Shown: positions 3,726 through 24,828 of the stretch, in pieces
Layout of the letters: each line of letters opens with the position of its first letter
Numbering within the stretch: position 1 is the stretch's first letter
NCBI GenBank assembly: GCA_000002445.1
Contig: AL929603.2
Span: 576,001 to 640,000, forward strand
Direction: 5' to 3'
DNA: 64,000 nucleotides
Source: Trypanosoma brucei
Lineage: Eukaryota
The notes under the pieces: model-generated
Told to the model about the DNA's origin: nothing
Seen by the model: the letters and a program-made list of their open reading frames with translations, nothing else
Databases searched by the model: none
Translations under genes and position numbers: made by a program

Positions 3726-5081
3726 ATGCGTGAGGCTATCTGCATCCACATTGGTCAGGCTGGTTGCCAGGTTGGTAACGCCTGCTGGGAATTGTTCTGC
3801 CTGGAACACGGCATTCAACCCGATGGTGCGATGCCCTCTGACAAGACGATTGGCGTTGAGGATGATGCGTTCAACACCTTCTTCTCTGAGACTGGTGCTG
3901 GCAAGCACGTTCCCCGCGCGGTGTTCTTGGACCTGGAGCCAACAGTGGTGGATGAAGTGCGCACTGGCACGTACCGCCAGCTGTTCCACCCCGAGCAGCT
4001 GATCTCCGGCAAGGAGGATGCGGCCAACAACTACGCTCGTGGCCACTACACCATTGGTAAGGAGATCGTCGACCTCTGCCTGGACCGCATCCGCAAGCTC
4101 GCTGACAACTGCACTGGTCTTCAGGGCTTCCTCGTGTATCACGCCGTCGGCGGTGGCACTGGTTCTGGCCTGGGTGCGCTGCTCTTGGAGCGCCTCTCCG
4201 TGGACTATGGCAAGAAGTCCAAGCTCGGCTACACGGTGTATCCATCACCGCAGGTGTCGACGGCTGTCGTGGAGCCCTACAACTCTGTGCTCTCGACACA
4301 CTCACTTCTGGAGCACACCGATGTTGCTGCGATGCTTGACAATGAAGCAATTTATGATTTGACTCGCCGCAACCTCGATATTGAGCGCCCCACGTACACC
4401 AACCTGAACCGCCTCATCGGTCAGGTGGTTTCCTCGCTGACAGCGTCCCTCCGCTTCGACGGTGCATTGAACGTGGATCTGACAGAGTTCCAGACAAACC
4501 TTGTGCCGTACCCACGTATCCACTTCGTGCTGACAAGCTATGCACCAGTCATCTCCGCAGAGAAGGCCTACCACGAGCAACTCTCTGTCTCTGAGATCTC
4601 GAACGCTGTGTTTGAGCCCGCCTCCATGATGACAAAGTGCGACCCCCGCCACGGCAAGTACATGGCGTGCTGCCTCATGTACCGTGGTGACGTTGTGCCA
4701 AAGGATGTGAATGCTGCCGTCGCGACCATCAAGACGAAGCGCACGATTCAGTTCGTGGACTGGTCTCCCACAGGCTTCAAGTGCGGTATCAACTACCAGC
4801 CACCCACGGTGGTGCCAGGTGGTGACCTTGCCAAGGTGCAGCGCGCGGTATGCATGATCGCCAACTCCACGGCCATCGCAGAGGTGTTCGCTCGTATTGA
4901 CCACAAATTCGATCTCATGTACAGCAAGCGCGCCTTCGTGCACTGGTACGTCGGTGAGGGTATGGAAGAGGGTGAGTTCTCCGAGGCCCGTGAAGACCTT
5001 GCAGCACTTGAGAAGGACTACGAAGAGGTTGGTGCCGAGTCCGCGGATATGGACGGTGAGGAGGATGTGGAGGAGTACTAG
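3726..5081 (+). CDS. TUBA: alpha-tubulin (451 aa), copy 2
   Basis: The protein is identical to the copy at 84-1439. Confidence 0.97.
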
Positions 5082-5407
5082 AAAGTGTGACAACGTCGCA
5101 CCATGTGTAGGTTTTCATTTACGTTCTTTCTTTCTTTTGTGAATTTGTTTTCTGTCTCAAATGTTTTTAATTCGCTTGGGACCTATGTTTTTCTTGTTTT
5201 TTTGCTCACCCTTTGTGTAGGAGGCATCCTGTCACGTCTGTGGTTGCGTGTATGCCTTCCTTCCCCTTATTCGCTTCTTCCTGTCGTGTCACACCTCTTT
5301 CTCTCTCTCCCTTTCCGCCTTTTCTTTCAATCTTGTTTTCTCGACCAGCCCTACTAGAGGAGAAAGAATAGTAACCCTTTCATCAAAGAAAATAGTTCAA
5401 ACGAATT

Positions 5408-6736
5408 ATGCGCGAAATCGTCTGCGTTCAGGCTGGCCAATGCGGCAACCAGATCGGCTCAAAGTTCTGGGAGGTGATCAGTGACGAGCACGGTGTGGAC
5501 CCCACAGGTACCTACCAGGGTGACTCTGACCTGCAGCTGGAGCGCATCAATGTGTACTTTGATGAGGCAACGGGAGGTCGCTATGTGCCCCGCTCCGTGC
5601 TGATTGATCTGGAGCCAGGTACAATGGACTCCGTACGTGCTGGCCCCTATGGTCAGATCTTCCGCCCCGACAACTTCATCTTTGGACAGTCTGGCGCCGG
5701 CAACAACTGGGCAAAGGGCCACTACACGGAGGGTGCGGAACTGATCGACTCTGTGCTCGATGTGTGCTGCAAGGAGGCGGAGAGCTGTGACTGCCTCCAG
5801 GGCTTCCAGATCTGCCACTCCCTTGGTGGTGGTACTGGCTCCGGCATGGGTACGCTGCTCATCTCGAAGCTTCGCGAGCAGTACCCTGACCGTATCATGA
5901 TGACTTTCTCCATCATCCCATCCCCCAAGGTGTCCGACACTGTCGTCGAGCCGTACAATACGACTCTCTCCGTGCACCAACTTGTGGAAAACTCCGATGA
6001 GTCGATGTGCATTGACAACGAGGCACTGTACGATATTTGCTTCCGCACCCTGAAACTGACAACACCAACGTTCGGTGACCTGAACCACTTGGTGTCTGCT
6101 GTTGTGTCCGGCGTCACCTGCTGCCTGCGCTTCCCTGGTCAGTTGAACTCTGACCTCCGTAAGTTGGCTGTGAACCTTGTCCCATTCCCGCGTCTGCACT
6201 TCTTCATGATGGGCTTCGCCCCGCTGACCAGCCGCGGCTCGCAGCAGTACCGCGGTCTCTCCGTGCCCGAGCTAACGCAGCAGATGTTCGATGCGAAAAA
6301 CATGATGCAAGCTGCAGATCCTCGTCACGGCCGCTACCTGACAGCGTCTGCACTCTTCCGCGGCCGCATGTCGACGAAGGAGGTTGATGAGCAGATGCTG
6401 AACGTGCAGAACAAGAACTCGTCCTACTTCATTGAGTGGATCCCGAACAACATCAAGTCCTCTGTTTGCGATATCCCACCCAAGGGACTCAAGATGGCTG
6501 TCACCTTCATTGGCAACAACACCTGCATCCAGGAGATGTTCCGCCGTGTGGGAGAGCAGTTCACCCTCATGTTCCGTCGCAAGGCGTTCTTGCACTGGTA
6601 CACTGGCGAGGGTATGGACGAGATGGAATTCACGGAGGCAGAGTCCAACATGAACGATCTCGTGTCTGAGTACCAGCAGTACCAGGATGCCACGATTGAG
6701 GAGGAGGGCGAGTTCGACGAGGAGGAGCAATACTAG
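5408..6736 (+). CDS. TUBB: beta-tubulin (442 aa), copy 2
   Basis: The protein is identical to copy 1. There is one synonymous difference, C versus T at 1804. Confidence 0.97.
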
Positions 6737-7367
6737 ACGCGGACGGGGCATTTCCCGTTCGTCATTAGCAGTAGGTAATGAAGATGTTTGTTTCTCGTCC
6801 CCTTTCTCCTTCGTCCTTCTGTCATTTTGTTCTTTTGTGTTTATGTTTTGTTGTTGTTTTCTTTAATTTTTTTTTTCTTCCACGTTTGTGTACATCCGCG
6901 CGCCACTCTATTCAGAGAGCCACGGATAGTAGAGGAGGTGGGAAGGGTATATGAGGGACACGCGTACCATGATGTGGGATGTATTGGGGTCCCTGTCTGT
7001 CCTTACGTGACTATGTATGAACCGTCACGTGTAAGATGAGCTAGTGAGATCAACAGTACAACTCATCAACACGCCTTCTTCTCGTTAAATGTACACAATC
7101 TTGATCCTCCACCTTTATGGGTCCCATTGTTTGCCTCTTCCGCTGTGTGGAGTGCGCCTACACGCACTTCTCACTTCGTAAGTGGTGGTGGCGTAAGTAT
7201 TGCCTAATGTTGACTCTATGTTCTCCTCTCCTCACCCCCTCGCGGTGCTGATTTCTGACAGATCTTCAAACACTAGTTTAAGCAAAGGACTATTCATCCG
7301 TTTATATTAGCAACAGTAGGTACTAGCACCACTAACAACAACAACAAAGCACTTCTATTTATTTATC

Positions 7368-8723
7368 ATGCGTGAGGCTATCTGCATCCACATTGGTCAG
7401 GCTGGTTGCCAGGTTGGTAACGCCTGCTGGGAATTGTTCTGCCTGGAACACGGCATTCAACCCGATGGTGCGATGCCCTCTGACAAGACGATTGGCGTTG
7501 AGGATGATGCGTTCAACACCTTCTTCTCTGAGACTGGTGCTGGCAAGCACGTTCCCCGCGCGGTGTTCTTGGACCTGGAGCCAACAGTGGTGGATGAAGT
7601 GCGCACTGGCACGTACCGCCAGCTGTTCCACCCCGAGCAGCTGATCTCCGGCAAGGAGGATGCGGCCAACAACTACGCTCGTGGCCACTACACCATTGGT
7701 AAGGAGATCGTCGACCTCTGCCTGGACCGCATCCGCAAGCTCGCTGACAACTGCACTGGTCTTCAGGGCTTCCTCGTGTATCACGCCGTCGGCGGTGGCA
7801 CTGGTTCTGGCCTGGGTGCGCTGCTCTTGGAGCGCCTCTCCGTGGACTATGGCAAGAAGTCCAAGCTCGGCTACACGGTGTATCCATCACCGCAGGTGTC
7901 GACGGCTGTCGTGGAGCCCTACAACTCTGTGCTCTCGACACACTCACTTCTGGAGCACACCGATGTTGCTGCGATGCTTGACAATGAAGCGATTTATGAT
8001 TTGACTCGCCGCAACCTCGATATTGAGCGCCCCACGTACACCAACCTGAACCGCCTCATCGGTCAGGTGGTTTCCTCGCTGACAGCGTCCCTCCGCTTCG
8101 ACGGTGCATTGAACGTGGATCTGACAGAGTTCCAGACAAACCTTGTGCCGTACCCACGTATCCACTTCGTGCTGACAAGCTATGCACCAGTCATCTCCGC
8201 AGAGAAGGCCTACCACGAGCAACTCTCTGTCTCTGAGATCTCGAACGCTGTGTTTGAGCCCGCCTCCATGATGACAAAGTGCGACCCCCGCCACGGCAAG
8301 TACATGGCGTGCTGCCTCATGTACCGTGGTGACGTTGTGCCAAAGGATGTGAATGCTGCCGTCGCGACCATCAAGACGAAGCGCACGATTCAGTTCGTGG
8401 ACTGGTCTCCCACAGGCTTCAAGTGCGGTATCAACTACCAGCCACCCACGGTGGTGCCAGGTGGTGACCTTGCCAAGGTGCAGCGCGCGGTATGCATGAT
8501 CGCCAACTCCACGGCCATCGCAGAGGTGTTCGCCCGTATTGACCACAAATTCGATCTCATGTACAGCAAGCGCGCCTTCGTGCACTGGTACGTCGGTGAG
8601 GGTATGGAAGAGGGTGAGTTCTCCGAGGCCCGTGAAGACCTTGCAGCACTTGAGAAGGACTACGAAGAGGTTGGTGCCGAGTCCGCGGATATGGACGGTG
8701 AGGAGGATGTGGAGGAGTACTAG
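7368..8723 (+). CDS. TUBA: alpha-tubulin (451 aa), copy 3
   Basis: The protein is identical to the other copies. It has two synonymous nucleotide differences, at 7991 and 8534. Confidence 0.97.
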
Positions 8724-9049
8724 AAAGTGTGACAACGTCGCACCATGTGTAGGTTTTCATTTACGTTCTTTCTTTCTTTTGTGAATTTGTTTTCTGTCTC
8801 AAATGTTTTTAATTCGCTTGGGACCTATGTTTTTCTTGTTTTTTTGCTCACCCTTTGTGTAGGAGGCACCCTGTCACGTCTGTGGTTGCGTGTATGCCTT
8901 CCTTCCCCTTATTCGCTTCTTCCTGTCGTGTCACACCTCTTTCTCTCTCTCCCTTTCCGCCTTTTCTTTCAATCTTGTTTTCTCGACCAGCCCTACTAGA
9001 GGAGAAAGAATAGTAACCCTTTCATCAAAGAAAATAGTTCAAACGAATT

Positions 9050-9950
9050 ATGCGCGAAATCGTCTGCGTTCAGGCTGGCCAATGCGGCAACCAGATCGGC
9101 TCAAAGTTCTGGGAGGTGATCAGTGACGAGCACGGTGTGGACCCCACAGGTACCTACCAGGGTGACTCTGACCTGCAGCTGGAGCGCATCAATGTGTACT
9201 TTGATGAGGCAACGGGAGGTCGCTATGTGCCCCGCTCCGTGCTGATTGATCTGGAGCCAGGTACAATGGACTCCGTACGTGCTGGCCCCTATGGTCAGAT
9301 CTTCCGCCCCGACAACTTCATCTTTGGACAGTCTGGCGCCGGCAACAACTGGGCAAAGGGCCACTACACGGAGGGTGCGGAACTGATCGACTCTGTGCTC
9401 GATGTGTGCTGCAAGGAGGCGGAGAGCTGTGACTGCCTCCAGGGCTTCCAGATCTGCCACTCCCTTGGTGGTGGTACTGGCTCCGGCATGGGTACGCTGC
9501 TCATCTCGAAGCTTCGCGAGCAGTACCCTGACCGTATCATGATGACTTTCTCCATCATCCCATCCCCCAAGGTGTCCGACACTGTCGTCGAGCCGTACAA
9601 TACGACTCTCTCCGTGCACCAACTTGTGGAAAACTCCGATGAGTCGATGTGCATTGACAACGAGGCACTGTACGATATTTGCTTCCGCACCCTGAAACTG
9701 ACAACACCAACGTTCGGTGACCTGAACCACTTGGTGTCTGCTGTTGTGTCCGGCGTCACCTGCTGCCTGCGCTTCCCTGGTCAGTTGAACTCTGACCTCC
9801 GTAAGTTGGCTGTGAACCTTGTCCCATTCCCGCGTCTGCACTTCTTCATGATGGGCTTCGCCCCGCTGACCAGCCGCGGCTCGCAGCAGTACCGCGGTCT
9901 CTCCGTGCCCGAGCTAACGCAGCAGATGTTCGATGCGAAAAACATGATGC
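9050..9950 (+). pseudogene. TUBB: beta-tubulin truncated after codon 300 by a retroposon insertion; the frame continues 49 codons into the ingi 5' end
   Basis: It matches the intact beta copies up to ...FDAKNMM at nt 9950. Intact copies continue QAADPRHG, but here the sequence switches to the ingi 5' end CCCTGGTGATGCTGGCCACC. Confidence 0.93.
9938..9950. repeat. 5' target-site duplication of ingi A (AAAAACATGATGC)
   Basis: The same 13-mer recurs at 15169-15181 directly after the poly(A) end of the element. It is derived from the beta-tubulin sequence. Confidence 0.8.
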
Positions 9951-10070
9951 CCCTGGTGATGCTGGCCACCTCATCGTGGTGCCAGGGTCCAGTACCTCGC
10001 CTATGCGTGGGAAGCCAAGAGCCGGCAACCGCCATCTTTGTAAGGAAGTGCCTGCGGGTGCGTCATCGTT

Positions 10071-10934
10071 TTGCCATGGGACAAGCAGAGTCAGGCTGAG
10101 ACAAAGTGTTATCAATGTCTGTCCTTAGGTACGTGCAGACGTGCCATCAGTAGTATTATTCGCGCCCAGAAACTGATGAATGGTGATGTGGAAAGTAAAT
10201 TAGACCCTGTATTCCGTGGCACCCAGTGGAACTGCGCTGCGCTCACACAGGGCAAGCGGTTAGCTCTTCATAGGATGCTCATTGAGGATAGGGTAAGCTT
10301 CTGCTTACTGTGCGAAACGAATTTTTCCTCTCTGGAAGAACAGATTCTCCATCCTCTACTTTTGCAACACGACGGAGCAGAAAGGGATGCAAACGGTGGT
10401 GGAGTATCTATTCTGATACAAAAAGTCCTCCGGGTGGAAGTCGGTGAGAAGAAAGTGGGACAGCTAGAACATGTAAGCGCCACTATCCACGTATCAGAGG
10501 AAGACAAACTAACGCTCACGTCAGCCTATTTTCCAAGAGGACGAAGCGCTGTGAACTTGGGAAAACTTGTCGCATTGAAGAGAGATGTGCAATACGTCAT
10601 AGGCGCCGACGTGAATTTACATTTGTGTCTATGGGATAGAGAGGTCCCTCCTGATGCAGGAGGTGAAGCAATGACTACTTGGTGTGTTGATACAGGTTAT
10701 ATTGTAGCAAATACAGCTGACCGCACCAGATATGACTATGCACGAAACCTCGGATCGTCCCCTGACGTAACGCTGAACCGGGAATGTCAAATTATCAATT
10801 GGACGGCTACAGAGACACCGGACAGTGATCACTACGTCATCTTATTTCAGTCATCGTCGGAAACGATGAGATCCCGATTGCCCTTGCTTGTCTGGACCGA
10901 GCGCTATTCTCTTGAAAGAAAGCCGACTGGGTGA
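10071..10934 (+). pseudogene. ingi A AP-endonuclease-like ORF segment
   Basis: This is the N-terminal endonuclease region, homologous to the ingi B ORF at 15220-15968. It is broken by stops and frameshifts. Confidence 0.6.
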
Positions 10935-11625
10935 AATTCAATGCCTACACCAAGCAAGAAAGCAAGAAGATCGGAAACTCGGGGAAAATACACAAAAACG
11001 CCCCCATTTTAGGTAATATTATCCGGGACGCGACAGTGAAAGCTGTCCCCCGCGGCTCCTTTTTCCAAAAGCCTTTGTGAACGAAGGAGTTAACAGAGAG
11101 AGATGAGAAGATACGATGCGTCCAACATCTTCGAGAGAGGCCATCTCTTGTCTCCCAGCGAAAAAAACTGCTAATGGAAGTCTCCACCAAACGATGGCAT
11201 GAGACTTGCAACAAGTTTGCAGTTTCTGAGAGTAACAGTTGGCATATCGTAAAGAATGTTTTCTCACAAAAAACCCTAGTCACACCAGCAGTGAGGGCAG
11301 ACAACAGAATCCTGGCGCAGAAGCAGCACGCACAGAGTCTCATAGATATATACCCTGAATAGTCGAAGCGGCACCCGGATGTTGCGCAAGCTCCTTCGAT
11401 TTCCCTCCCAAAACAGATGCCATACAGGCGTATCTCCATGGGAGAATTGAACACAACCCTAAGGTATATACCAAATGGTTCTGCTCCTGGAAACAATATG
11501 CAGTGGATTGAGAGGCTCTCAAGCACCTCAACAAATATGGAAGGCGTTTACTACCACGATTATTCAATCGCAGTTTATACGCTGGTGAGGATCCGCAACC
11601 GTGGAAAAAAGGTGTCATCATTCCA

Positions 11626-12545
11626 TTGTTGAAAGTGGGAAAGCCATCCATTGACCTAGCATCCTTCAGGCCTGTTACCTTAACAAGTACGGTCTTAAAG
11701 GTCATGGAAAAGATTGTCTGCGCAAGGATCCGTAACACTGTCGAATCGAAATTGAAAGTGCAGCAATCAGGATTCAGCACGGGTAACTCTACACTAGACC
11801 AGCTCTTACACCTAATGGCAGCTCTATGTAGACCTCACCACGATGACAGGAAAGGGGCTGTATTTGCTTATTACCCGGAGGCATTCGACACGGTAGATCA
11901 TGCAACAGCGGTTCGTGCCATGCAGGAAATGGGAATACCAACTTACACTGTGAAATGGACCGCTACCTTACTACAGGGAAGAAAAAAACAAGTAAGGGTA
12001 AAGAAGGTGTTTTCGGGGAACAGGGAGTTCACACGAGGGGTTCCACAAGGTACAGTCCTAGGTCCCCTCTTATCATAGTGGTGAACTCTCTCAGTAAACG
12101 CCTCAACCAAATTCCTGGTCTAGGACATGGCTTCTTCGCAGACGATCTAACTCTCTCATGTCGTCACTCTGATAGAAACATAGTCCAGGAAACGCTCCAA
12201 GCAGGGCTAAACGCAGTAGCAGCATGGAGCCGAGAGACTTATATGGGCATTAATGTGGATAAGACCAAATACACACTATTTGGCGCCAAGAACAGAAACT
12301 CACTACTTCTGTTGGTGAACGGGAAACCTATCGATGAAGATAGAAATCCCAAGATACTTGGCATCACATTACAGTCATATAGTGGTTTCTCCACCCATGT
12401 CGAGGGGGTTAAAAAGGCAGTGGATATGCGACTACTGCAACTTGCTGCAATCTCATCAACTTCTTGGGGACCACGAACCAACACGATCAGGACGTTCTAC
12501 ATTGCCCTGACTCGTGCAAAGATCTTGTACGGCGTGGCGATTTAG
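11626..12545 (+). pseudogene. ingi A reverse-transcriptase segments, two overlapping frames
   Basis: RT-like sequence: FRPVTLTSTVLKVMEKIVCARI...; ...FADDLTLSC... (YxDD-like); LVNGKPIDEDRNPKILGI. The reading frame shifts near 11955-12078. Confidence 0.7.
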
Positions 12546-13028
12546 TATCATAATGCCAACTACTTCAATCAGGAAGAGCTAGAGTGTTCCCAAAACAGAG
12601 CGTGCAGAATTCTCTCCGGAACGGTGAGAGGTTGAAACAGTACAGACGCGCGCCTAGAGGCCAACTTAACGTCCCTTAGAGAAGCCGCGACGATACGGGG
12701 TCTGAAGTACCTGATACGCTGCCAGCCACGAGATAGATACCTAAAAGAGAGTGCGGAGTTAGTATATCACCCAAGTTATCCTGTCCGAAAGTTACTGAAT
12801 GATGTAAAGCGTGAATACCCACAACTTCAGGTAGAATCCGCACACACCACAGAGTGGTGTCCATATTTCTGGATACAGCGAACAGATGTCTGTTTCACTA
12901 CGCCATTCCCCCGAATGTGAACAGAGACTCGGAGGAAGAACTCAAACGTGAGACATCCGAAAGATGGATAAAGCGCCGTTATTAGAAGAAAAGGGCAATA
13001 ACCCTGTCGCTCTATCACACTACGAAGT

Positions 13029-13310
13029 GTGGACAGACGGATCTGTAACACTGGAGGAAAATCAGGAGCGGCAGCTCTCATCGTCAAGAATGGCAAACTC
13101 CTGCACAAAGTGCTCGAAGGAACGGGACGACTTGCATGCAGCTATAGAGCTGAATGTGTAGTCCTAATAATTGGCCTGAAACAACTGTCCAAAGAGATCG
13201 ATAAAGCAGAAAAACAAAACTTCCGATTATTGATATTTACGGACTCATGGTCAATGGTAGCAGCTCTGCACGCGGGCCCGCTTACAGTTACAGACACAGT
13301 ACTGCGCTAA
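13029..13310 (+). pseudogene. ingi A RNase H-like segment
   Basis: The sequence TDGSVT...AAALIVKNGKLL...RAECVVLIIGLKQL...FTDSWSMVAAL matches the RNase H fold pattern. Confidence 0.65.
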
Positions 13311-13728
13311 ATATGGACACTACTCATCCAACTCCAAAGTAAAGGAGGACGGATTCGTATTCAGTTCATATTTGGTCACTGTGGAATAGCGGGTAATGAG
13401 CAAGCTGACGCAGCAGAGCAACCACAAATGCGAACTGCATGGATACCGGAGGTGGTTGCAGCAGCGAAAAGGCTGCTGCGCACTACAAGGGAAAAGCCAC
13501 AAACACATAGGGCCACACTTACTGGACACTGGAAGAACACAAACCTCAAGACCTCGCTGTCCAGAAAAGAATAAACCCTACTGACTCAACTCCGCACGGG
13601 TGCAGCACCTACGTACGGTTGGGTGAACAGGAAATTGAACCCTAATATCCCCAACACATGCAGATGGTGTTGCAATGTGGCAAAAAGCCAGACAGTGGAG
13701 CTCGTGAGTGTGAGACCAACATCCACAC

Positions 13729-14085
13729 GTGCAAGCGATCCAACAGTTTGCCCAATTTGTGGGCTGCGATGCTCGAACCGGCAAAATGGCGCTATACACA
13801 TGCAACGAACCCATGGAGTCCAATACGAGCAGGGCAAACGGCGACTCAAATTCCCGCGAGGAGATGGAGGAGGATTCCAATTTGGCCCTCCCACCTCCCG
13901 AACCGCCGCCAAACACAGAAACACCGCAAACCGCTGCGGATACTATTATGTATCCCTGCTTGATCTGCGAGAGGACCTTCAAATCGAAGACTTGGCAAAC
14001 AAGGCACAGAGAGACCGCACACCCGGGTGTAGCACCACCGCGCGGAACAACAGAAAACCCAGAGGGAAGTGAACAAACAACATAA
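13729..14085 (+). pseudogene. ingi A C-terminal C2H2 zinc-finger segment
   Basis: YPCLICERTFKSKTWQTRHRETAHPG is a C2H2 finger. Confidence 0.7.
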
Positions 14086-14568
14086 TCGGAGAACACTCTT
14101 CAGTGTGCCCTGTGTTCTTTTGTACACAAGTCCAAGGGTGGATTAACAAACCACCGAAGAGTCCAGCACCCAGATCAAAAGGTCACGATAGCAACCAGGA
14201 AGAGCGGAAGGGATTCGGCGAATCGACGGGAAGTAGAGGAGGAGGAACCATCAGCTACCTCGCTCCATTGTACATGCTGCGATTTCATAGAGAAATCAAA
14301 GAGTGGGTTAGCTGCGCACTGTAGGTATAGGCACCTCCAAACAGTCTAGTCTATCACTACAGTTTCAAAAAAGAGACCAAGGACCCCCACTCCAGAGAAT
14401 AGATCGCAGAAAGTACGGACGGAAAGAGTCGAAGGAAGATATCAGTGTGATCACTGCGAGAAGACATACGCCACACCATCCACTCTAATACGCCACTACA
14501 GGGCGAAAAATAGTGGAAGCGTATGTCAGCTCTCTAGCACCGAGGCAGCTCCGGCAGGACGACGATAC

Positions 14569-15000
14569 GTGAAGGTTACAGTGCCGACGCATGAGTGTAC
14601 CGAGTGCGGCACCAAGTGCTACTCAAAAGCAGGACTAACGCGTCATCAACAAACTGCACATGGTTTGAAGCTGGAAACCCCTCTCCCCCAGATGCATGAA
14701 TGCGAAGAGTCACCTAGGCACCTACTCGTGTACCCAGGACTCGCTACACTGCGTCAACGATTCTTCAAGGATGACACACCTCTCGAAAAGTTGCTGTACA
14801 GTGAAGAGTTAACAAAATTCCTACTGGAACTGGAAAAACTCTCACAAAAGGTACCGCCAGAAAGTAAAGGCCGAACGCCGGATATCGAATCAGCTGACCC
14901 TCGTAGTGATTGCCCTCCGTCTAGGAGATATCAAACTTCTGTCTCCCCCCCCCCTGTCGGATCGCGTGGGAAGCGGAAACGCTCACCATTTCCTCGATGA
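14569..15000 (+). pseudogene. ingi A second C2H2 zinc-finger segment
   Basis: HECTECGTKCYSKAGLTRHQQTAHG is a C2H2 finger. It lies in a different frame from the preceding segment. Confidence 0.65.
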
Positions 15001-15168
15001 GCCCCTGTGTACACAGTTAGTCTCCCCCGTCCATATTAAGACGGAGCCTGGGTCTCGTCAGCCCAGAAACTCTCCCCCCTTCACCACAAAGCAGGCACCA
15101 ACGTTCGAATAGGACTGCTGGTGGTACGCTGCCAAATATCTCTTTGAGATAATTGCGCGTTATATTAA

Positions 15169-15181
15169 AAAAACATGATGC
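15169..15181. repeat. 3' target-site duplication of ingi A (AAAAACATGATGC), merged with the element poly(A)
   Basis: Identical to 9938-9950. Confidence 0.8.
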
Positions 15182-16185
15182 CCCTGCACCCGCAGCAGAT
15201 TCCCTCAAAGAGCTGACGGTTGCAGGGGCTTGGCTTCCCCCGCATAGGCGAGGTACTGGACCCTGGTACCACGATGAGGTGGCCGGCTGAGCCAGGGTGC
15301 GGAAGCCAAGGGCCTGCGACACCCGAAAGGGCTAACAAGCTTAGGTTTCTACTTGTTGGGAAAACGGATAGTGGAAACCACCCTAGTGGTTGGTTGGTCG
15401 CTCGCACTGTGCGCTACAGTACTGCGGATGCAGAGATTGGACCTTGCAAGGGTTTAATTTCGCACGATTGCAAGCTTCTGCTGTTACTGTGTGGATACTT
15501 TGAGCGCAATCCTGGACCCCTCCGGTTTGTGCAGCAGAACGTTAACGGTGTCTCAGCAGTAAAGCTATCAAGCCTACTTGCTCTAGATGCAGACGTCTAT
15601 CTTCTTCCGGAGGTGAAGAAGTTGCGTGAGGCGTCTCGCATCTGTAAGGTCCCGCCATACACAGTTTACTGTAGCCCCCCGAACGCTCGGGGTGGAAGAG
15701 TTGCCATCTTGGTGCACCAACGAAGCAGCATCCAGACCAGGAGTGTGACATGGAAAGCACTCCCAAACGACACTGGCATCAAAGCCGTAACTGTGAAATT
15801 GTGATAGGTAATACTCATCTGGGTATAGTGAATGTTTACATCCCCCCACCACCGAGCATCACTGGATCCTTCGCTACCCTTCTGCAGACCTTGGAAAATA
15901 ACTGCTCTATTATTGAGGGAAACTTCAATGTTTTCCACCCACTATGGTGGAGCGAGGTCGGTCAATAAAACAGGTCGGACAAGTTCTTTTACCTGTCCAC
16001 CTATGCATATTCGAACTGCAAAACATCCTTGACGCGGTAACACGAAGCTAAGGCAATCAGAAAAGCGCCCTGGACCTCACCCCGTCTCGTTTGGATGATG
16101 CAATGCAACGGACCACGCTATTGTAGCTAGACAGCGATCACAAAGGGATCACATTTATGCTCGAAAAAGCATGCGAAATGATTAT
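15182..16185 (+). mobile_element. second ingi-type element, a 5' fragment of about 1 kb with an inverted 5' terminus; its 3' limit is approximate
   Basis: Positions 15185-15297 are the reverse complement of an ingi 5' end (Pr77). From 15298 the sequence continues in forward ingi orientation, starting near element nt 55. The ORF at 15220-15968 encodes a 2A-like ...ERNPGP motif followed by the AP-endonuclease N-terminus (LRFVQQNVNGVS...DADVYLLPEV). Confidence 0.75.
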
Positions 16186-16495
16186 TCTCATCCCCTTTAT
16201 CCCTAGCCTCTTCCACTTTCCAACTTCCCTCCTCTGCCTCCTCTCACCCTTTTGTTTTTGTATTTCCCTTTTATTTTACATTTTCACCCCACCATCAGCG
16301 TCCTTTCACTGGCTTTGTGGCACCGCTTCCTTCTTAGTAGCGGTTCTTTTGCACAACCGCATGCACACATACATCCCTTTGAATGTCATACCTCCCTCCT
16401 CTCTCTTTCTCTTTTTTTTTTCTGTTACATCTCATACTAGAAAGCTAAAAAGCTACTTTACCACAACTCTCAAACCAAGCAACAAACTAAAAGAC

Positions 16496-16897
16496 ATGTC
16501 GAGGACCAAGGAAACCGCCAGGACGAAGAAGACCATCACCTCCAAGAAGAGCAAGAAGGCCTCAAAGGGTTCTGATGCCGCATCTGGCGTAAAGACCGCC
16601 CAACGCCGCTGGAGGCCCGGCACCGTGGCACTCCGTGAAATCCGCCAGTTCCAACGCTCCACCGACCTGCTGCTACAAAAGGCACCATTTCAACGCCTGG
16701 TCCGTGAGGTGTCTGGTGCCCAAAAGGAGGGTCTGCGCTTCCAGAGTAGCGCTATTCTCGCCGCACAGGAAGCGACTGAGTCGTACATTGTGTCGCTGCT
16801 TGCCGATACCAACCGCGCATGCATTCACAGTGGGCGTGTGACAATCCAACCAAAGGACATTCACCTTGCCCTCTGCCTACGCGGTGAACGTGCATAA
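16496..16897 (+). CDS. H3: histone H3 (133 aa)
   Basis: Sequence [25 protein letters not shown]...RLVREV...[17 protein letters not shown]. The H3 core motifs are present with a trypanosomatid-type divergent N-terminus. The true start is the internal Met of the longer ORF-track entry. Confidence 0.95.
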
Positions 16898-18078
16898 GAA
16901 GGTACAGAAATGCGTAATTGAGTGAGTGAGTATGAATATGAGTAGGTGTGTGTGTATGTATGTATGTATGCGTGAGGGTCAGGGTTGAGACAAATATTCA
17001 GATTAGAGAAAGAAAGAAAGAGAGAGAGAGCACTGCAAAGCATGCATGCATGTATATGTATATATGTGTGTATGTTTATGTGCATGACCTTCTTTCTCTT
17101 TCCCCTTCTCCTCTCTGTTGCTCTCCTCTACGTTCCACTTGCATGCATAACACATACTTCCTTCTTGTAACTGCTCCCTTTCTCTCATTACACTGTGTAG
17201 CCTTTACTTTCTTTCCCCTCTTCCCCTCACTACAAAGACACTGTGTGTCCGACCCTCCTAACTTGCTCCTGCTCACAGCGGTTTCCAGTCGCATTAGCCA
17301 TCGTCACACGGTACCACACAATGATGCCTTGTGATTTGTTTTGCCTTTTGCTACTATTCATCGGAGGCCGTGCGTGGCGTGCGCGGATTGTTGTGCAGGT
17401 GTACCTGCCGGCGTGTCCCCGCTGCGCGGTTGGGGAAGAGACAAGTTTAGGGGGCTGTTGTGACACAGTTAGATTTTCCACGTCACCTCCAGCGGTGCGG
17501 ATGCCTCCACTTCAGGTGTGGTTCCCCATTCCCCCGTATATCTTTCTTTCTTTCTTTTCGTCTGCTCATTCCACTCTGGGTGCAATATCCGGGAGTGTGG
17601 AATAAGAGTTGAGATTGGGGTTAAGATGAGGGTAAAGGGGAGTGGAGGGGCGACGTGGGAGAGACGGATGGCCAGATGGAAAGGGAAAGAAAGGTGTGAA
17701 AGTGTGGAGGTAACGAGATATTGGGTGAGGGTGACTGATAGAGGACAGCATCTGTGAATGTGTGGTTACTCTTCTCCCCTTTATCCCTAGCCTCTTCCAC
17801 TTTCCAACTTCCCTCCTCTGCCTCCTCTCACCCTTTTGTTTTTGTATTTCCCTTTTATTTTACATTTTCACCCCACCATCAGCATCCTTTCACTGGCTTT
17901 GTACCACCGCTTCCTTCTTAGTAGCGGTTCTTTTGCACAACCGCATGCACACATACATCCCTTTGAATTTCATACCTCCCTCCTCTCTCTTTCTCTTTTT
18001 TTTTCTGTTACATCTCATACTAGAAAGCTAAAAAGCTACTTTACCACAACTCTCAAACCAAGCAACAAACTAAAAGAC

Positions 18079-18480
18079 ATGTCGAGGACCAAGGAAACCG
18101 CCAGGACGAAGAAGACCATCACCTCCAAGAAGAGCAAGAAGGCCTCAAAGGGTTCTGATGCCGCATCTGGCGTAAAGACCGCCCAACGCCGCTGGAGGCC
18201 CGGCACCGTGGCACTCCGTGAAATCCGCCAGTTCCAACGCTCCACCGACCTGCTGCTACAAAAGGCACCATTTCAACGCCTGGTCCGTGAGGTGTCTGGT
18301 GCCCAAAAGGAGGGTCTGCGCTTCCAGAGTAGCGCTATTCTCGCCGCACAGGAAGCGACTGAGTCGTACATTGTGTCGCTGCTTGCCGATACCAACCGCG
18401 CATGCATTCACAGTGGGCGTGTGACAATCCAACCAAAGGACATTCACCTTGCCCTCTGCCTACGCGGTGAACGTGCATAA
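18079..18480 (+). CDS. H3: histone H3 (133 aa), copy 2
   Basis: The protein is identical to copy 1. Confidence 0.95.
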
Positions 18481-19662
18481 GAAGGTACAGAAATGCGTAA
18501 TTGAGTGAGTGAGTATGAATATGAGTAGGTGTGTGTGTATGTATGTATGTATGCGTGAGGGTCAGGGTTGAGACAAATATTCAGATTAGAGAAAGAAAGA
18601 AAGAGAGAGAGAGCACTGCAAAGCATGCATGCATGTATATGTATATATGTGTGTATGTTTATGTGCATGACCTTCTTTCTCTTTCCCCTTCTCCTCTCTG
18701 TTGCTCTCCTCTACGTTCCACTTGCATGCATAGCACATACTTCCTTCTTGTAACTGCTCCCTTTCTCTCATTACACTGTGTAGCCTTTACTTTCTTTCCC
18801 CTCTTCCCCTCACTACAAAGACACTGTGTGTCCGACCCTCCTAACTTGCTCCTACTCACAGCGGTTTCCAGTCGCATTAGCCATCGTCACACGGTACCAC
18901 ACAATGATGCCTTGTGATTTGTTTTGCCTTTTGCTACTATTCATCGGAGGCCGTGCGTGGCGTGCGCGGATTGTTGTGCAGGTGTACCTGCCGGCGTGTC
19001 CCCGCTGCGCGGTTGGGGAAGAGACAAGTTTAGGGGGCTGTTGTGACACAGTTAGATTTTCCACGTCACCTCCAGCGGTGCGGATGCCTCCACTTCAGGT
19101 GTGGTTCCCCATTCCCCCGTATATCTTTCTTTCTTTCTTTTCGTCTGCTCATTCCACTCTGGGTGCAATATCCGGGAGTGTGGAATAAGAGTTGAGATTG
19201 GGGTTAAGATGAGGGTAAAGGGGAGTGGAGGGGCGACGTGGGAGAGACGGATGGCCAGATGGAAAGGGAAAGAAAGGTGTGAAAGTGTGGAGGTAACGAG
19301 ATATTGGGTGAGGGTGACTGATAGAGGACAGCATCTGTGAATGTGTGGTTACTCTTCTCCCCTTTATCCCTAGCCTCTTCCACTTTCCAACTTCCCTCCT
19401 CTGCCTCCTCTCACCCTTTTGTTTTTGTATTTCCCTTTTATTTTACATTTTCACCCCACCATCAGCATCCTTTCACTGGCTTTGTACCACCGCTTCCTTC
19501 TTAGTAGCGGTTCTTTTGCACAACCGCATGCACACATACATCCCTTTGAATTTCATACCTCCCTCCTCTCTCTTTCTCTTTTTTTTTTCTGTTACATCTC
19601 ATACTAGAAAGCTAAAAAGCTACTTTACCACAACTCTCAAACCAAGCAACAAACTAAAAGAC

Positions 19663-20064
19663 ATGTCGAGGACCAAGGAAACCGCCAGGACGAAGAAGAC
19701 CATCACCTCCAAGAAGAGCAAGAAGGCCTCAAAGGGTTCTGATGCCGCATCTGGCGTAAAGACCGCCCAACGCCGCTGGAGGCCCGGCACCGTGGCACTC
19801 CGTGAAATCCGCCAGTTCCAACGCTCCACCGACCTGCTGCTACAAAAGGCACCATTTCAACGCCTGGTCCGTGAGGTGTCTGGTGCCCAAAAGGAGGGTC
19901 TGCGCTTCCAGAGTAGCGCTATTCTCGCCGCACAGGAAGCGACTGAGTCGTACATTGTGTCGCTGCTTGCCGATACCAACCGCGCATGCATTCACAGTGG
20001 GCGTGTGACAATCCAACCAAAGGACATTCACCTTGCCCTCTGCCTACGCGGTGAACGTGCATAA
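19663..20064 (+). CDS. H3: histone H3 (133 aa), copy 3
   Basis: The protein is identical to copy 1. Confidence 0.95.
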
Positions 20065-21254
20065 GAAGGTACAGAAATGCGTAATTGAGTGAGTGAGTAT
20101 GAATATGAGTAGGTGTGTGTGTATGTATGTATGTATGTATGTATGCGTGAGGGTCAGGGTTGAGACAAATATTCAGATTAGAGAAAGAAAGAAAGAGAGA
20201 GAGAGCACTGCAAAGCATGCATGCATGCATATATATATATGTGTGTATGTTTATGTGCATGACCTTCTTTCTCTTTCCCCTTCTCCTCTCTGTTGCTCTC
20301 CTCTACGTTCCACTTGCATGCATAACACATACTTCCTTCTTGTAACTGCTCCCTTTCTCTCATTACACTGTGTAGCCTTTACTTTCTTTCCCCTCTTCCC
20401 CTCACTACAAAGACACTGTGTGTCCGACCCTCCTAACTTGCTCCTACTCACAGCGGTTTCCAGTCGCATTAGCCATCGTCACACGGTACCACACAATGAT
20501 GCCTTGTGATTTGTTTTGCCTTTTGCTACTGTTCATCGGAGGCCGTGCGTGGCGTGCGCGGATTGTTGTGCAGGTGTACCTGCCGGCGTGTCCCCGCTGC
20601 GCGGTTGGGGAAGAGACAAGTTTAGGGGGCTGTTGTGACACAGTTAGATTTTCCACGTCACCTCCAGCGGTGCGGATGCCTCCACTTCAGGTGTGGTTCC
20701 CCATTCCCCCGTATATCTTTCTTTCTTTCTTTTCGTCTGCTCATTCCACTCTGGGTGCAATATCCGGGAGTGTGGAATAAGAGTTGAGATTGGGGTTAAG
20801 ATGAGGGTAAAGGGGAGTGGAGGGGCGACGTGGGAGAGACGGATGGCCAGATGGAAAGGGAAAGAAAGGTGTGAAAGTGTGGAGGTAACGAGATATTGGG
20901 TGAGGGTGACTGATAGAGGACAGCATCTGTGAATGTGTGGTTACTCTTCTCCCCTTTATCCCTAGCCTCTTCCACTTTCCAACTTCCCTCCTCTGCCTCC
21001 TCTCACCCTTTTGTTTTTGTATTTCCCTTTTATTTTACATTTTCACCCCACCATCAGCATCCTTTCACTGGCTTTGTACCACCGCTTCCTTCTTAGTAGC
21101 GGTTCTTTTGCACAACCGCATGCACACATACATCCCTTTGAATGTCATACCTCCCTCCTCTCTCTTTCTCTTTTTTTTTTCTGTTACATCTCATACTAGA
21201 AAGCTAAAAAGCTACTTTACCACAACTCTCAAACCAAGCAACAAACTAAAAGAC

Positions 21255-21656
21255 ATGTCGAGGACCAAGGAAACCGCCAGGACGAAGAAGACCATCACCT
21301 CCAAGAAAAGCAAGAAGGCCTCAAAGGGTTCTGATGCCGCATCTGGCGTAAAGACCGCCCAACGCCGCTGGAGGCCCGGCACCGTGGCACTCCGTGAAAT
21401 CCGCCAGTTCCAACGCTCCACCGACCTGCTGCTACAAAAGGCACCATTTCAACGCCTGGTCCGTGAGGTGTCTGGTGCCCAAAAGGAGGGTCTGCGCTTC
21501 CAGAGTAGCGCTATTCTCGCCGCACAGGAAGCGACTGAGTCGTACATTGTGTCGCTGCTTGCCGATACCAACCGCGCATGCATTCACAGTGGGCGTGTGA
21601 CAATCCAACCAAAGGACATTCACCTTGCCCTCTGCCTACGCGGTGAACGTGCATAA
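21255..21656 (+). CDS. H3: histone H3 (133 aa), copy 4
   Basis: The protein is identical to copy 1, with one synonymous AAG-to-AAA change. Confidence 0.95.
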
Positions 21657-22840
21657 GAAGGTACAGAAATGCGTAATTGAGTGAGTGAGTATGAATATGA
21701 GTAGGTGTGTGTGTATGTATGTATGTATGTATGCGTGAGGGTCAGGGTTGAGACAAATATTCAGATTAGAGAAAGAAAGAAAGAAAGAGAGAGCACTGCA
21801 AAGCATGCATGCATGCATATATATATGTGTGTATGTTTATGTGCATGACCTTCTTTCTCTTTCCCCTTCTCCTCTCTGTTGCTCTCCTCTACGTTCCACT
21901 TGCATGCATAACACATACTTCCTTCTTGTAACTGCTCCCTTTCTCTCATTACACTGTGTAGCCTTTACTTTCTTTCCCCTCTTCCCCTCACTACAAAGAC
22001 ACTGTGTGTCCGACCCTCCTAACTTGCTCCTGCTCACAGCGGTTTCCAGTCGCATTAGCCATCGTCACACGGTACCACACAATGATGCCTTGTGATTTGT
22101 TTTGCCTTTTGCTACTATTCATCGGAGGCCGTGCGTGGCGTGCGCGGATTGTTGTGCAGGTGTACCTGCCGGCGTGTCCCCGCTGCGCGGTTGGGGAAGA
22201 GACAAGTTTAGGGGGCTGTTGTGACACAGTTAGATTTTCCACGTCACCTCCAGCGGTGCGGATGCCTCCACTTCAGGTGTGGTTCCCCATTCCCCCGTAT
22301 ATCTTTCTTTCTTTCTTTTCGTCTGCTCATTCCACTCTGGGTGCAATATCCGGGAGTGTGGAATAAGAGTTGAGATTGGGGTTAAGATGAGGGTAAAGGG
22401 GAGTGGAGGGGCGACGTGGGAGAGACGGATGGCCAGATGGAAAGGGAAAGAAAGGTGTGAAAGTGTGGAGGTAACGAGATATTGGGTGAGGGTGACTGAT
22501 AGAGGACAGCATCTGTGAATGTGTGGTTACTCTTCTCCCCTTTATCCCTAGCCTCTTCCACTTTCCAACTTCCCTCCTCTGCCTCCTCTCACCCTTTTGT
22601 TTTTGTATTTCCCTTTTATTTTACATTTTCACCCCACCATCAGCATCCTTTCGCTGGCTTTGTACCACCGCTTCCTTCTTAGTAGCGGTTCTTTTGCACA
22701 ACCGCATGCACACATACATCCCTTTGAATGTCATACCTCCCTCCTCTCTCTTTCTCTTTTTTTTTTCTGTTACATCTCATACTAGAAAGCTAAAAAGCTA
22801 CTTTACCACAACTCTCAAACCAAGCAACAAACTAAAAGAC

Positions 22841-23242
22841 ATGTCGAGGACCAAGGAAACCGCCAGGACGAAGAAGACCATCACCTCCAAGAAGAGCAAG
22901 AAGGCCTCAAAGGGTTCTGATGCCGCATCTGGCGTAAAGACCGCCCAACGCCGCTGGAGGCCCGGCACCGTGGCACTCCGTGAAATCCGCCAGTTCCAAC
23001 GCTCCACCGACCTGCTGCTACAAAAGGCACCATTTCAACGCCTGGTCCGTGAGGTGTCTGGTGCCCAAAAGGAGGGTCTGCGCTTCCAGAGTAGCGCTAT
23101 TCTCGCCGCACAGGAAGCGACTGAGTCGTACATTGTGTCGCTGCTTGCCGATACCAACCGCGCATGCATTCACAGTGGGCGTGTGACAATCCAACCAAAG
23201 GACATTCACCTTGCCCTCTGCCTACGCGGTGAACGTGCATAA
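22841..23242 (+). CDS. H3: histone H3 (133 aa), copy 5
   Basis: The protein is identical to copy 1. Confidence 0.95.
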
Positions 23243-24426
23243 GAAGGTACAGAAATGCGTAATTGAGTGAGTGAGTATGAATATGAGTAGGTGTGTGTGT
23301 ATGTATGTATGTATGCGTGAGGGTCAGGGTTGAGACAAATATTCAGATTAGAGAAAGAAAGAAAGAAAGAGAGAGCACTGCAAAGCATGCATGCATGTAT
23401 ATGTATATATATGTGTGTATGTTTATGTGCATGACCTTCTTTCTCTTTCCCCTTCTCCTCTCTGTTGCTCTCCTCTACGTTCCACTTGCATGCATAACAC
23501 ATACTTCCTTCTTGTAACTGCTCCCTTTCTCTCATTACACTGTGTAGCCTTTACTTTCTTTCCCCTCTTCCCCTCACTACAAAGACACTGTGTGTCCGAC
23601 CCTCCTAACTTGCTCCTACTCACAGCGGTTTCCAGTCGCATTAGCCATCGTCACACGGTACCACACAATGATGCCTTGTGATTTGTTTTGCCTTTTGCTA
23701 CTATTCATCGGAGGCCGTGCGTGGCGTGCGCGGATTGTTGTGCAGGTGTACCTGCCGGCGTGTCCCCGCTGCGCGGTTGGGGAAGAGACAAGTTTAGGGG
23801 GCTGTTGTGACACAGTTAGATTTTCCACGTCACCTCCAGCGGTGCGGATGCCTCCACTTCAGGTGTGGTTCCCCATTCCCCCGTATATCTTTCTTTCTTT
23901 CTTTTCGTCTGCTCATTCCACTCTGGGTGCAATATCCGGGAGTGTGGAATAAGAGTTGAGATTGGGGTTAAGATGAGGGTAAAGGGGAGTGGAGGGGCGA
24001 CGTGGGAGAGACGGATGGCCAGATGGAAAGGGAAAGAAAGGTGTGAAAGTGTGGAGGTAACGAGATATTGGGTGAGGGTGACTGATAGAGGACAGCATCT
24101 GTGAATGTGTGGTTACTCTTCTCCCCTTTATCCCTAGCCTCTTCCACTTTCCAACTTCCCTCCTCTGCCTCCTCTCACCCTTTTGTTTTTGTATTTCCCT
24201 TTTATTTTACATTTTCACCCCACCATCAGCATCCTTTCACTGGCTTTGTACCACCGCTTCCTTCTTAGTAGCGGTTCTTTTGCACAACCGCATGCACACA
24301 TACATCCCTTTGAATGTCATACCTCCCTCCTCTCTCTTTCTCTTTTTTTTTTCTGTTACATCTCATACTAGAAAGCTAAAAAGCTACTTTACCACAACTC
24401 TCAAACCAAGCAACAAACTAAAAGAC

Positions 24427-24828
24427 ATGTCGAGGACCAAGGAAACCGCCAGGACGAAGAAGACCATCACCTCCAAGAAGAGCAAGAAGGCCTCAAAGGG
24501 TTCTGATGCCGCATCTGGCGTAAAGACCGCCCAACGCCGCTGGAGGCCCGGCACCGTGGCACTCCGTGAAATCCGCCAGTTCCAACGCTCCACCGACCTG
24601 CTGCTACAAAAGGCACCATTTCAACGCCTGGTCCGTGAGGTGTCTGGTGCCCAAAAGGAGGGTCTGCGCTTCCAGAGTAGCGCTATTCTCGCCGCACAGG
24701 AAGCGACTGAGTCGTACATTGTGTCGCTGCTTGCCGATACCAACCGCGCATGCATTCACAGTGGGCGTGTGACAATCCAACCAAAGGACATTCACCTTGC
24801 CCTCTGCCTACGCGGTGAACGTGCATAA
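24427..24828 (+). CDS. H3: histone H3 (133 aa), copy 6
   Basis: The protein is identical to copy 1. Confidence 0.95.

Follow-up and report, generated by a model that had tools for sequence, protein, structure and literature searches.

The stretch of Trypanosoma brucei DNA analysed here (64,000 nucleotides, hereafter the window) lies on chromosome 1 and includes the end of the alpha/beta-tubulin array. The terminal beta-tubulin gene (9050-9950, plus strand) is cut after codon 300; up to 9950, where the beta-tubulin homology ends exactly, it shows 99.9% identity with the two intact copies (1416-2666 and 5058-6308). The gene reads into a retroposon, designated as element A (9951-15168, plus strand), and forms with it a 349-aa fusion ORF (9050-10099), the T. 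b. gambiense orthologue of which is annotated as 'Tubulin beta chain'. No remnant of the 3' third of the gene was found elsewhere in the window. Element A is bracketed by two copies of the 13-mer AAAAACATGATGC (9938-9950 and 15169-15181, both plus strand), which consists of the 12-nt target-site duplication (TSD) AAAACATGATGC plus one A. Two further retroposon fragments, B (15182-15297, minus strand) and C (15298-16178, plus strand), precede the tandem array of histone H3, with seven units of ~1584 bp and a partial unit, and then the coatomer-beta gene (16179-27379, plus strand). The orientation of element A is the same as that of both flanking arrays, and the element marks their boundary. The original prediction had placed it exactly between the arrays, which does not hold on the right side: the first H3 unit starts at 16179, and the ~1 kb between the right repeat copy and that unit (15182-16178) is occupied by older retroposon debris.

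Element A measures 5218 bp between the repeats and retains both complete ends, as had been predicted from its CCCTGG start, its 5' signature and its TATATT(A)n terminus. It starts with CCCTGGTGATGCTGGCCACCTCATCGTGG and ends with ...GCGCGTTATATT, followed by A's. The 5' '76-79-bp signature' (the Pr77-type hallmark; 9951-10029, plus strand) aligned with five other ingi-clade 5' ends, and its core at 9966-9996 matched without a mismatch, with no match expected by chance as judged from shuffled sequences. Downstream, a degenerate 2A-like motif (GDVESKLDPV, where GDVExNPGP is expected) and an APE-type endonuclease domain occupy 10044-10931 (plus strand), the latter being detected with the Pfam model Exo_endo_phos_2 (E=4.1e-7, over the curated cut-off). 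The reverse transcriptase (RT) domain (11512-12542, plus strand) is split by a frameshift at ~12075, and both of its pieces were recognized by RVT_1 over the curated cut-offs (E=1.3e-18, profile positions 3-129; E=6.9e-8, positions 132-205). The best protein matches of the endonuclease and the RT are trypanosome ingi-type proteins, with 43-55% identity for the RT. A putative C-terminal C2H2 zinc-finger remnant (14590-14661, plus strand) scored below the curated cut-off of zf-C2H2 (E=3.3e-4; 21.4 bits vs 25.2), and its region is collinear with the C-terminus of canonical ingi. The order of the parts is that of ingi: 5' signature, 2A-like motif, APE endonuclease, RT, putative zinc finger and A-rich tail.

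Given the signature that begins at CCCTGG, the APE endonuclease followed by an RT, and the A-rich tail with a 12-bp TSD, the right copy of which may be partly native to fragment B, element A belongs, as a full-length but dead non-LTR retroposon, to the trypanosomatid ingi/L1Tc clade. Its reading frame shifts in the order f0>f2>f1>f0>f1 (at least four changes) and carries several in-frame stops, in agreement with the prediction of an ORF broken into at least five pieces and a probably inactive element. A single long ORF comparable to the 1657-aa one of potentially active Tbingi is absent from element A. A protein search revealed no intact ORF of its family, the best non-self match being 75% identical. 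Element A has no coding function today.

The debris on the right side of element A contains two layers. Fragment B corresponds to the start (~116 nt) of an A-like retroposon in inverted orientation: it shares 85% identity with 9961-10061 in reverse complement, matches the signature core on the minus strand, and has its 5' end (CCCTGG) at 15297. Fragment C is a very divergent, endonuclease-only remnant of the ingi clade, in which the signature is present from position ~63 onward, followed by a 2A motif (ERNPGP) and an endonuclease domain that is complete, though frameshifted. The stitched translation of this domain matched Exo_endo_phos_2 with E=2.5e-9 (profile positions 3-116 of 117) and is ~32% identical to other ingi-clade endonucleases. 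An annotated ORF, Tb927.1.2420 (15274-15804), falls in the region of fragment C, and the ORF found here is identical to TB927.1.2420. Fragment C ends at the boundary of the H3 repeat. The A-like element from which fragment B derives had inserted into C.

The direct repeat was examined at both junctions. The left copy is native beta-tubulin sequence, and the 13-mer occurs elsewhere only at the same position of the two intact beta-tubulin copies (2654 and 6296). A 12-nt identity abutting both of the independently defined ends of element A has a chance of ~6e-8, and the 12-13-bp length is, as predicted, that published for TSDs of the clade (PMC3820030). However, the right copy is followed by CCCTGCACCC..., the inverted 5'-signature fragment, vs AAGCTGCAGATCC in intact beta-tubulin, so that of the two copies attributed to beta-tubulin in the original prediction only the left one sits in that gene. 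The last 7 nt of the right copy (ATGATGC) also continue fragment B, and the reverse complement of the whole right copy, GCATCATGTTTT, contains the family-conserved GGCATCAT in register and aligns at 11 of 13 positions with the homologous GCGTCATCGTTTT of element A (10061-10073; A positions 111-123). The right copy could therefore be original B sequence and not a duplicate of beta-tubulin. The passage of the right copy into B instead of beta-tubulin, together with the at least 7 nt that this copy shares with B, implies a second, microhomology-type rearrangement. The absence of the 3' third of beta-tubulin likewise makes the picture of a simple insertion incomplete, and this loss and the position of the B junction in the microhomology indicate that the second event brought the tubulin side together with the block of B, C and H3.

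From this anatomy we infer, with good though not full confidence, that a dead ingi-clade element of a non-Tbingi family inserted into beta-tubulin, and that the tubulin side became linked to the B-C-H3 side in a separate, second event. The anatomy, the family relationships, the degeneracy of the element and its fixation across subspecies are observed, whereas the steps of its arrival, the order of events and the repair pathway are reconstructed. Element A would most likely have arrived by target-primed reverse transcription, with the last beta-tubulin gene first nicked ahead of AAAACATGATGC, cDNA synthesis primed on the A-rich tail of the element, and a second nick 12 nt downstream, the fill-in of which would have produced the 12-nt duplication. 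The stack to the right of the duplication would be older, B having inserted in C and C having been cut off by the H3 array. For the joining event, which may have occurred before or after the insertion of A, the most plausible mechanism is a deletion or end joining mediated by the microhomology of 7 nt or more (ATGATGC). Whichever of the two events came first, the microhomology and the duplication must end at the same place, a coincidence that weighs against this reading.

A rather unlikely alternative is that the 13-mers are not a beta-tubulin TSD at all: element A would have inserted in an inverted A-like element, the source of fragment B, at a AAAACATGATGC that belonged to B itself, and a chance identity of 12-13 nt in beta-tubulin would later have allowed recombination or microhomology-mediated end joining to attach the tubulin array to the left copy. 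The continuation of B homology into the right copy, where GGCATCAT is in register and 11 of the 13 positions agree with A, speaks for this scheme, as do the missing 3' part of beta-tubulin and the published link between a retroelement and the movement of the H3 array (PMC1621084). Between a 3.6-kb tubulin unit and a 5.2-kb element, ~0.6-2 exact matches of 12-13 nt are expected by chance on both strands, which also favours it. However, the target of A in B must then be the very 12-mer that matches beta-tubulin, and the native sequence of B past position 116 is deduced rather than observed. A plain beta-tubulin TSD followed by a deletion at 7 nt of microhomology needs fewer assumptions.

In a further scheme, the repeat would be native to both beta-tubulin and B, element A having been captured as cDNA during a microhomology-mediated fusion of the tubulin array to the B-C-H3 block; we regard this as improbable, but if it were true, the locus would preserve the trace of a move of the histone H3 array that a retroposon had assisted. 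Still less probability attaches to the explicit, endonuclease-independent form of such a capture, in which, during repair of a break between the tubulin side and the B side through the shared 12-nt microhomology, a 3' overhang ending in T served as the primer for reverse transcription of an A-family RNA from its A-tail, so that both copies of the microhomology were retained around the new copy. It would account for three coincidences at once, namely that the 13-mer is native to beta-tubulin, that it fits B, and that A lies exactly between the copies; T. brucei is, moreover, an organism that relies on microhomology-mediated end joining. Nevertheless, such events are not described for trypanosomes in the literature examined, and a repeat as long as the canonical 12-nt TSD of the clade (PMC3820030) suggests that the endonuclease of the element itself was at work.

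Whether element A is ingi in the strict sense was judged against canonical Tbingi, defined operationally as the RIME-flanked copies in two other sequences (L002 and L011). In L011, a RIME with a perfect 12-bp TSD is 93.5% identical to the ingi 5' end in its 5' half and 90% identical to the ingi 3' end in its 3' half, and the two canonical copies share ~95% nucleotide identity. That a canonical, RIME-flanked 5.25-kb Tbingi simply inserted in beta-tubulin is suggested by the 5218-bp length, near the published 5250 bp (PMC3820030, Table S1), and by the CCCTGG start, 5' signature, domain order, A-rich tail and 12-13-bp repeat that element A has in common with this ingi4-subclade family (PMC3820030). 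Alignment to the canonical copies did reveal collinear homology over the whole length, but at the protein level (35-55% amino-acid identity, mean ~43%); DNA similarity is 70% within nt 1-320, and none was detected beyond them. The 5' 242 nt of A are 72% identical to the 5' half of RIME, whereas its 3' end showed no similarity to the RIME/ingi 3' half. The RT of A is ~50% identical to the canonical RT, as against 93% between the two canonical RTs, and a crude neighbor-joining tree together with the RT identity table placed A outside the Tbingi cluster. In contrast to Tbingi, element A also has a degenerate 2A motif, many frameshifts and stops, and no RIME 3' half.

The target site leads in the same direction. 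On the ingi4 signature AxxxxxxxTxxxGTxGGxTxxx^xTxTxxTxxxxx (PMC3820030), the site of A scored 4/10, which is background, being reached by 27% of window positions, whereas three canonical ingi/RIME sites scored 10/10, 8/10 and 7/10. Since the right flank is moreover not beta-tubulin, a simple insertion of canonical Tbingi is very improbable. The original call of a full-length ingi accordingly survives as a full-length, inactive ingi/L1Tc-clade retroposon that truncates the terminal beta-tubulin gene, but not as Tbingi (ingi sensu stricto). Element A was also considered as a TbRIME, with which it shares the 5' signature region and, in relation to the element described in PMC1621084, the genomic position; RIME is a ~500-bp non-coding element made of two ingi ends, however, and the 5218 bp of A, its endonuclease and RT remnants and its different 3' end rule this out.

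Relatives of element A point to a heterogeneous family, known here from three other members, all partial: one at L012 is 83.5% identical over nt 2-1950, another in the window (62003-63435) is 96.4% identical, and the A-type 3' end recurs at L001 (89%), where it is followed by A7. Placed by published definitions rather than by a DIRE reference sequence, element A fits a degenerate ingi-related element of the DIRE type. TbDIREs (degenerate ingi/L1Tc-related elements) are ~5 kb long and present in 73 copies (PMC3820030, Table S1); element A resembles them in its length, signature, ingi-type domains, frameshifts and stops, and in belonging to a heterogeneous (83-96%), evidently extinct family. Unlike them, it is complete at both ends and still flanked by a perfect repeat of 12-13 nt, and its target site scored just 4/6 on the ingi6 signature, a value that is reached by 5.5% of window positions and is only suggestive. 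L1Tc of T. cruzi and Tcoingi/Tvingi of T. congolense and T. vivax belong to the same clade and have the same architecture, with RT identities to A of 43-50% for the T. vivax/T. congolense elements and ~35% for a T. cruzi RT; they are, however, potentially active families of other species without DNA-level similarity to A.

An assembly artefact, in which repeated elements were wrongly joined where two collapsed arrays meet, has a negligible probability. Arrays and retroposons are hard to assemble, and the contig of T. equiperdum OVI is interrupted within A; however, four independent sources agree in this structure and in the sequence of its junctions, among them chromosome 1 of T. b. gambiense and a T. 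equiperdum assembly at chromosome scale. Both junctions of A are base-for-base identical in T. b. gambiense DAL972, in the IVM-t1-type T. equiperdum assembly GCA_003543875.1 and in T. equiperdum OVI, so the comparison of empty and occupied sites proposed as a PCR, carried out here in silico, returned an occupied site throughout, with no empty site among these three assemblies. The orthologous copies of A in the three genomes are all degenerate and 1.2-3.1% diverged. The insertion is old and fixed across subspecies among the genomes checked. A perfect duplication of 12-13 nt is unusual for so degenerate an element; it fits a divergence of a few percent since insertion, not great age.

The presence of a retroelement at the tubulin/H3 boundary is already published: it was described where the tubulin array of T. 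brucei ends, was tied to the adjacent H3 array, was reported to be missing in other species that conserve the gene order, and was called TbRIME (PMC1621084). Both 12-bp TSDs and retroposons adjoining other retroposons are typical of the ingi clade (PMC3820030).

The 5' end of element A and fragment B form a near-perfect inverted repeat of ~120 nt on one polycistronic strand, with a cofolding energy of -203 kcal/mol vs -97 +/- 5 kcal/mol for shuffled sequences. Such a repeat could conceivably feed double-stranded RNA to the RNAi pathway that silences retroposons.

The window matches the tubulin/H3 boundary of T. brucei chromosome 1, given its array genes and a 176-aa ORF (15274–15804) identical in sequence to TB927.1.2420 in T. 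b. brucei TREU927. Alpha-tubulin genes (e.g., 7368–8723) and beta-tubulin genes alternate in a 3642-bp repeat, and the histone H3 array, with seven units of about 1584 bp, occupies 16179–27379. The last beta-tubulin gene is 99.9% identical to the intact copies, the homology ends exactly at 9950, and a search of the rest of the window, including the region beyond the H3 array, did not recover the missing 3' part. The gene is cut by element A (9951–15168, plus strand), which we characterized together with its flanks and its counterparts in related genomes.

Element A is 5218 bp long, starts with CCCTGGTGATGCTGGCCACCTCATCGTGGTGCCAGGG, and terminates with GCGCGTTATATT followed by A's. Its 5' end was set by the CCCTGG start common to other elements and its 3' end by the equal terminal sequence and A-run in a family copy on a T. 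equiperdum OVI contig (L001, 1313–1396). The trypanosomatid 5' signature core was found at 9966–9996 with 0 mismatches, whereas none is expected in shuffled sequences. The 13-mer AAAAACATGATGC, a 12-nt duplication plus one A, occurs four times: in the intact beta-tubulin genes (2654 and 6296), at 9938–9950, and at 15169–15181. The latter two copies abut both element ends, and 12/12 identity of flanks abutting independently set ends has a chance probability near 6e-8. The length, start, 5' hallmark, A-tail, and 12–13-bp flanking repeat of the original prediction were thus confirmed. Pfam searches detected an APE-type endonuclease, a reverse transcriptase (RT), and a weak C2H2 finger. The RT is broken by a frameshift near 12075, and the frame path of the element (f0>f2>f1>f0>f1), with several in-frame stops, bears out the predicted splitting of its ORF into at least five pieces. 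The 2A-like motif has also decayed (GDVESKLDPV, 10170–10215; relatives have GDVEKNPGP or GDVEENPGP). An Rfam scan of 9800–16300 at E ≤ 1 gave no match, so the signature corresponds neither to a curated HDV-like ribozyme nor to any other curated RNA family.

To assign element A to a family, we drew up a working definition of canonical Tbingi from two elements that are about 95% mutually identical, one from chromosome 2 of T. b. gambiense (locus L002), the other from T. equiperdum (locus L011). L011 also carries a 480-bp RIME with a perfect 12-bp target-site duplication (TTATTTTCCCTA). The 5' half of this RIME is 93.5% identical to the 5' end of the L002 element and its 3' half 90% identical to the 3' end of the L011 element, a relationship that is the classical description of ingi, as the title of Kimmel et al. 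1987 (cited in PMC3820030) indicates. Compared with canonical Tbingi, element A is collinear over its full length at the protein level, but the identity is 35–55% (mean, about 43%) and the DNA similarity is limited to the first 320 nt (70%). Its RT is about 50% identical to the canonical RTs, whereas these are 93% identical to each other, and its 3' end does not resemble the 3' half of RIME. In a crude neighbor-joining tree, element A falls outside the Tbingi cluster. Three canonical sites reach 10/10, 8/10, and 7/10 on the Tbingi/RIME target signature published in PMC3820030, whereas the site of element A reaches 4/10, the background level; on the ingi6 signature it scores 4/6, as do 5.5% of positions or more favorable ones combined. 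Neither the window nor any of the fetched loci, the canonical ones included, contains the ingiR-TALE 15-mer of PMC12975129 (GCCGGCCACCTCAAC), which therefore did not discriminate.

Sequences closer to element A do exist: the T. equiperdum contig L012 matches it with 83.5% identity over nt 2–1950, an A-type 3' end in L001 has 89% identity, and an internal 1.4-kb piece on the minus strand of the window (62003–63435) is 96.4% identical to 12740–14171. Given these relatives and the low identity to canonical Tbingi, we regard element A as full-length and as belonging to a divergent, degenerate family of the ingi clade. We file this family under DIRE, to which it would correspond by the published category description (about 5 kb, 73 copies; PMC3820030 Table S1). 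Element A is accordingly neither Tbingi nor RIME but a probable DIRE-type relative of ingi: a fixed, dead retroposon with a clean 12–13-nt flanking repeat, real but ordinary.

With histone H3 and the 176-aa ORF as queries, orthologous loci were retrieved from three genomes: chromosome 1 of T. b. gambiense DAL972 (L003), T. equiperdum assembly GCA_003543875.1, and the T. equiperdum OVI contig. Positions 7000–16600 of the window are collinear with the first (98.6%) and second (97.9%). None of the three differs from the window in either repeat copy or at either junction, so the insertion predates the split of these Trypanozoon lineages. The orthologous copies of element A differ by 1.2–3.1% and are all broken. 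The proposed check of occupancy in other strains and subspecies, performed here by sequence comparison, therefore found the site occupied in all three genomes and empty in none of them. On the OVI contig, another 3' end of the same family, followed by A7 and unrelated sequence, lies beyond an assembly gap at the H3-unit start (1303–1400), and an ESAG1 gene lies further along; the arrangement at 1303–1400 is probably a scaffold join across collapsed repeats.

The element had also been placed exactly between the two arrays, but the H3 unit begins at 16179 and 15182–16178 is other sequence. The right repeat is followed by CCCTGCACCCGCAGCAG, whereas the intact beta-tubulin genes continue with AAGCTGCAGATCC. 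Hence, the left copy is embedded in beta-tubulin, with homology up to 9950, and the right one is not. Fragment B (15182–15297, minus strand) represents, in reverse complement, the initial ~116 nt of an ingi-type 5' end and has its CCCTGG at 15297; its identity to the 5' end of element A is 85%, and the two have A-specific variants in common. Fragment C (15298–16178, plus strand) begins at about signature position 63 and ends at the start of the H3 unit. It retains a 2A motif (ERNPGP, 15490–15520; NPGP kept) and a complete endonuclease domain with two frameshifts, the stitched translation of which matches Exo_endo_phos_2 (E=2.5e-9, profile 3–116/117) and is only about 32% identical to other ingi-clade endonucleases. 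A database protein search with its ORF found only its own cluster ('T. brucei spp.-specific protein' / Tb927.1.2420). Tb927.1.2420 (15274–15804; 'hypothetical' or 'T. brucei spp.-specific protein') is the 2A and N-terminal endonuclease part of this decayed ingi-clade remnant and is unlikely to be a genuine gene. Three nested ingi-clade pieces thus make up the entire 6.2-kb inter-array spacer.

The simplest reading of element A is that target-primed reverse transcription would have inserted it into the last beta-tubulin gene with a 12-nt duplication, as is usual for the ingi clade (PMC3820030). Insertion alone would leave the remainder of beta-tubulin to the right of the element; since this is absent from the window, a second event is needed. 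Other clade members conserve GGCATCAT where the reverse complement of fragment B reads GGGGCATCAT, running into the repeat, and in this register at least ATGATGC is common to beta-tubulin and B. Because of this overlap and the missing 3' part, a second, microhomology-type rearrangement must be assumed, which would have joined the tubulin side to the B–C–H3 side before or after the insertion. Alternatively, the right repeat may be B's own sequence, with the tubulin side joined to the left copy. Chance alone should produce about 0.6–2 exact 12–13-nt matches when a tubulin unit is compared with a 5.2-kb element, so such microhomology is not implausible. In reverse complement (GCATCATGTTTT), the 12-nt repeat aligns 11/13 with the homologous stretch of element A (GCGTCATCGTTTT, 10061–10073). 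Each of these scenarios leaves a coincidence to be explained, namely that the end of the microhomology is also that of the duplication. The prediction of an ingi inserted simply between two arrays is only partly right. Two other readings of the spacer were rejected: fragments B and C as a twin-priming-type 5' inversion of one element, since they diverge completely after about 30 nt of overlap, and B as a plus-strand element starting CCCTGC in tandem with A, since the match is the reverse complement of signature-region positions 1–116.

Affolter, Rindisbacher and Braun reportedly described, in 1989, a terminal beta-tubulin gene that is truncated and into which a retrotransposon-like sequence intrudes. 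The feature is already known: a retroelement has been reported beside the H3 array where the T. brucei tubulin array ends; it seemed linked to the relocation of the adjoining H3 array and is absent, as is that array, from other species with otherwise conserved gene order (PMC1621084). The nested debris is consistent with an H3 array that came here together with retroposons. Our additions are the placement of the element in a family and the detailed structure of its right flank; the locus is present in reference genomes, and its importance beyond housekeeping is slight.

At the other end of the H3 array, the first ~100 nt of the unit (16179–16280) recur with 95% identity at 27278–27379, just upstream of the coatomer-beta gene, so an incomplete unit closes the array directly before that gene; that side has no retroposon remnant. 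The truncated beta-tubulin gene (9050–10099) reads into the retroposon 5' signature, giving a 349-aa ORF. Its T. b. gambiense counterpart (L003, 2599–3648), annotated as 'Tubulin beta chain' (CBH08959.1), is such a tubulin–retroposon read-through. Exact-protein look-ups matched the ATG-started 176-aa ORF and histone H3 and gave no match for the 349-aa fusion ORF or a TTG-started 194-aa ORF. The 90% protein cluster of the truncated tubulin (L003, 2599–3645) includes Leishmania 'histone deacetylase' proteins of 628–1011 aa, which suggests that Leishmania annotations contain tubulin–HDAC fusion gene models or that the cluster is chained.

The 5' end of element A (9951–10075) and fragment B with the right repeat (15169–15297) can pair on the same strand over about 120 nt across a 5.1-kb loop, with a cofold energy of -203 kcal/mol versus -97 +/- 5 for shuffled sequences; judging from this folding, the pair is a possible source of double-stranded RNA if co-transcribed. 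Near the window end, 61377–61662 and 63561–63846 are the 286-nt arms of a perfect inverted repeat, with 100% complementarity and a spacer of 1898 nt; in T. brucei, inverted repeats that are long and perfect have been reported to give rise to siRNAs (PMC3447711). The arms include parts of the 5' region of canonical ingi and bracket the minus-strand internal fragment of the element A family at 62003–63435; 61377–63846 is a mosaic of two retroposon families.
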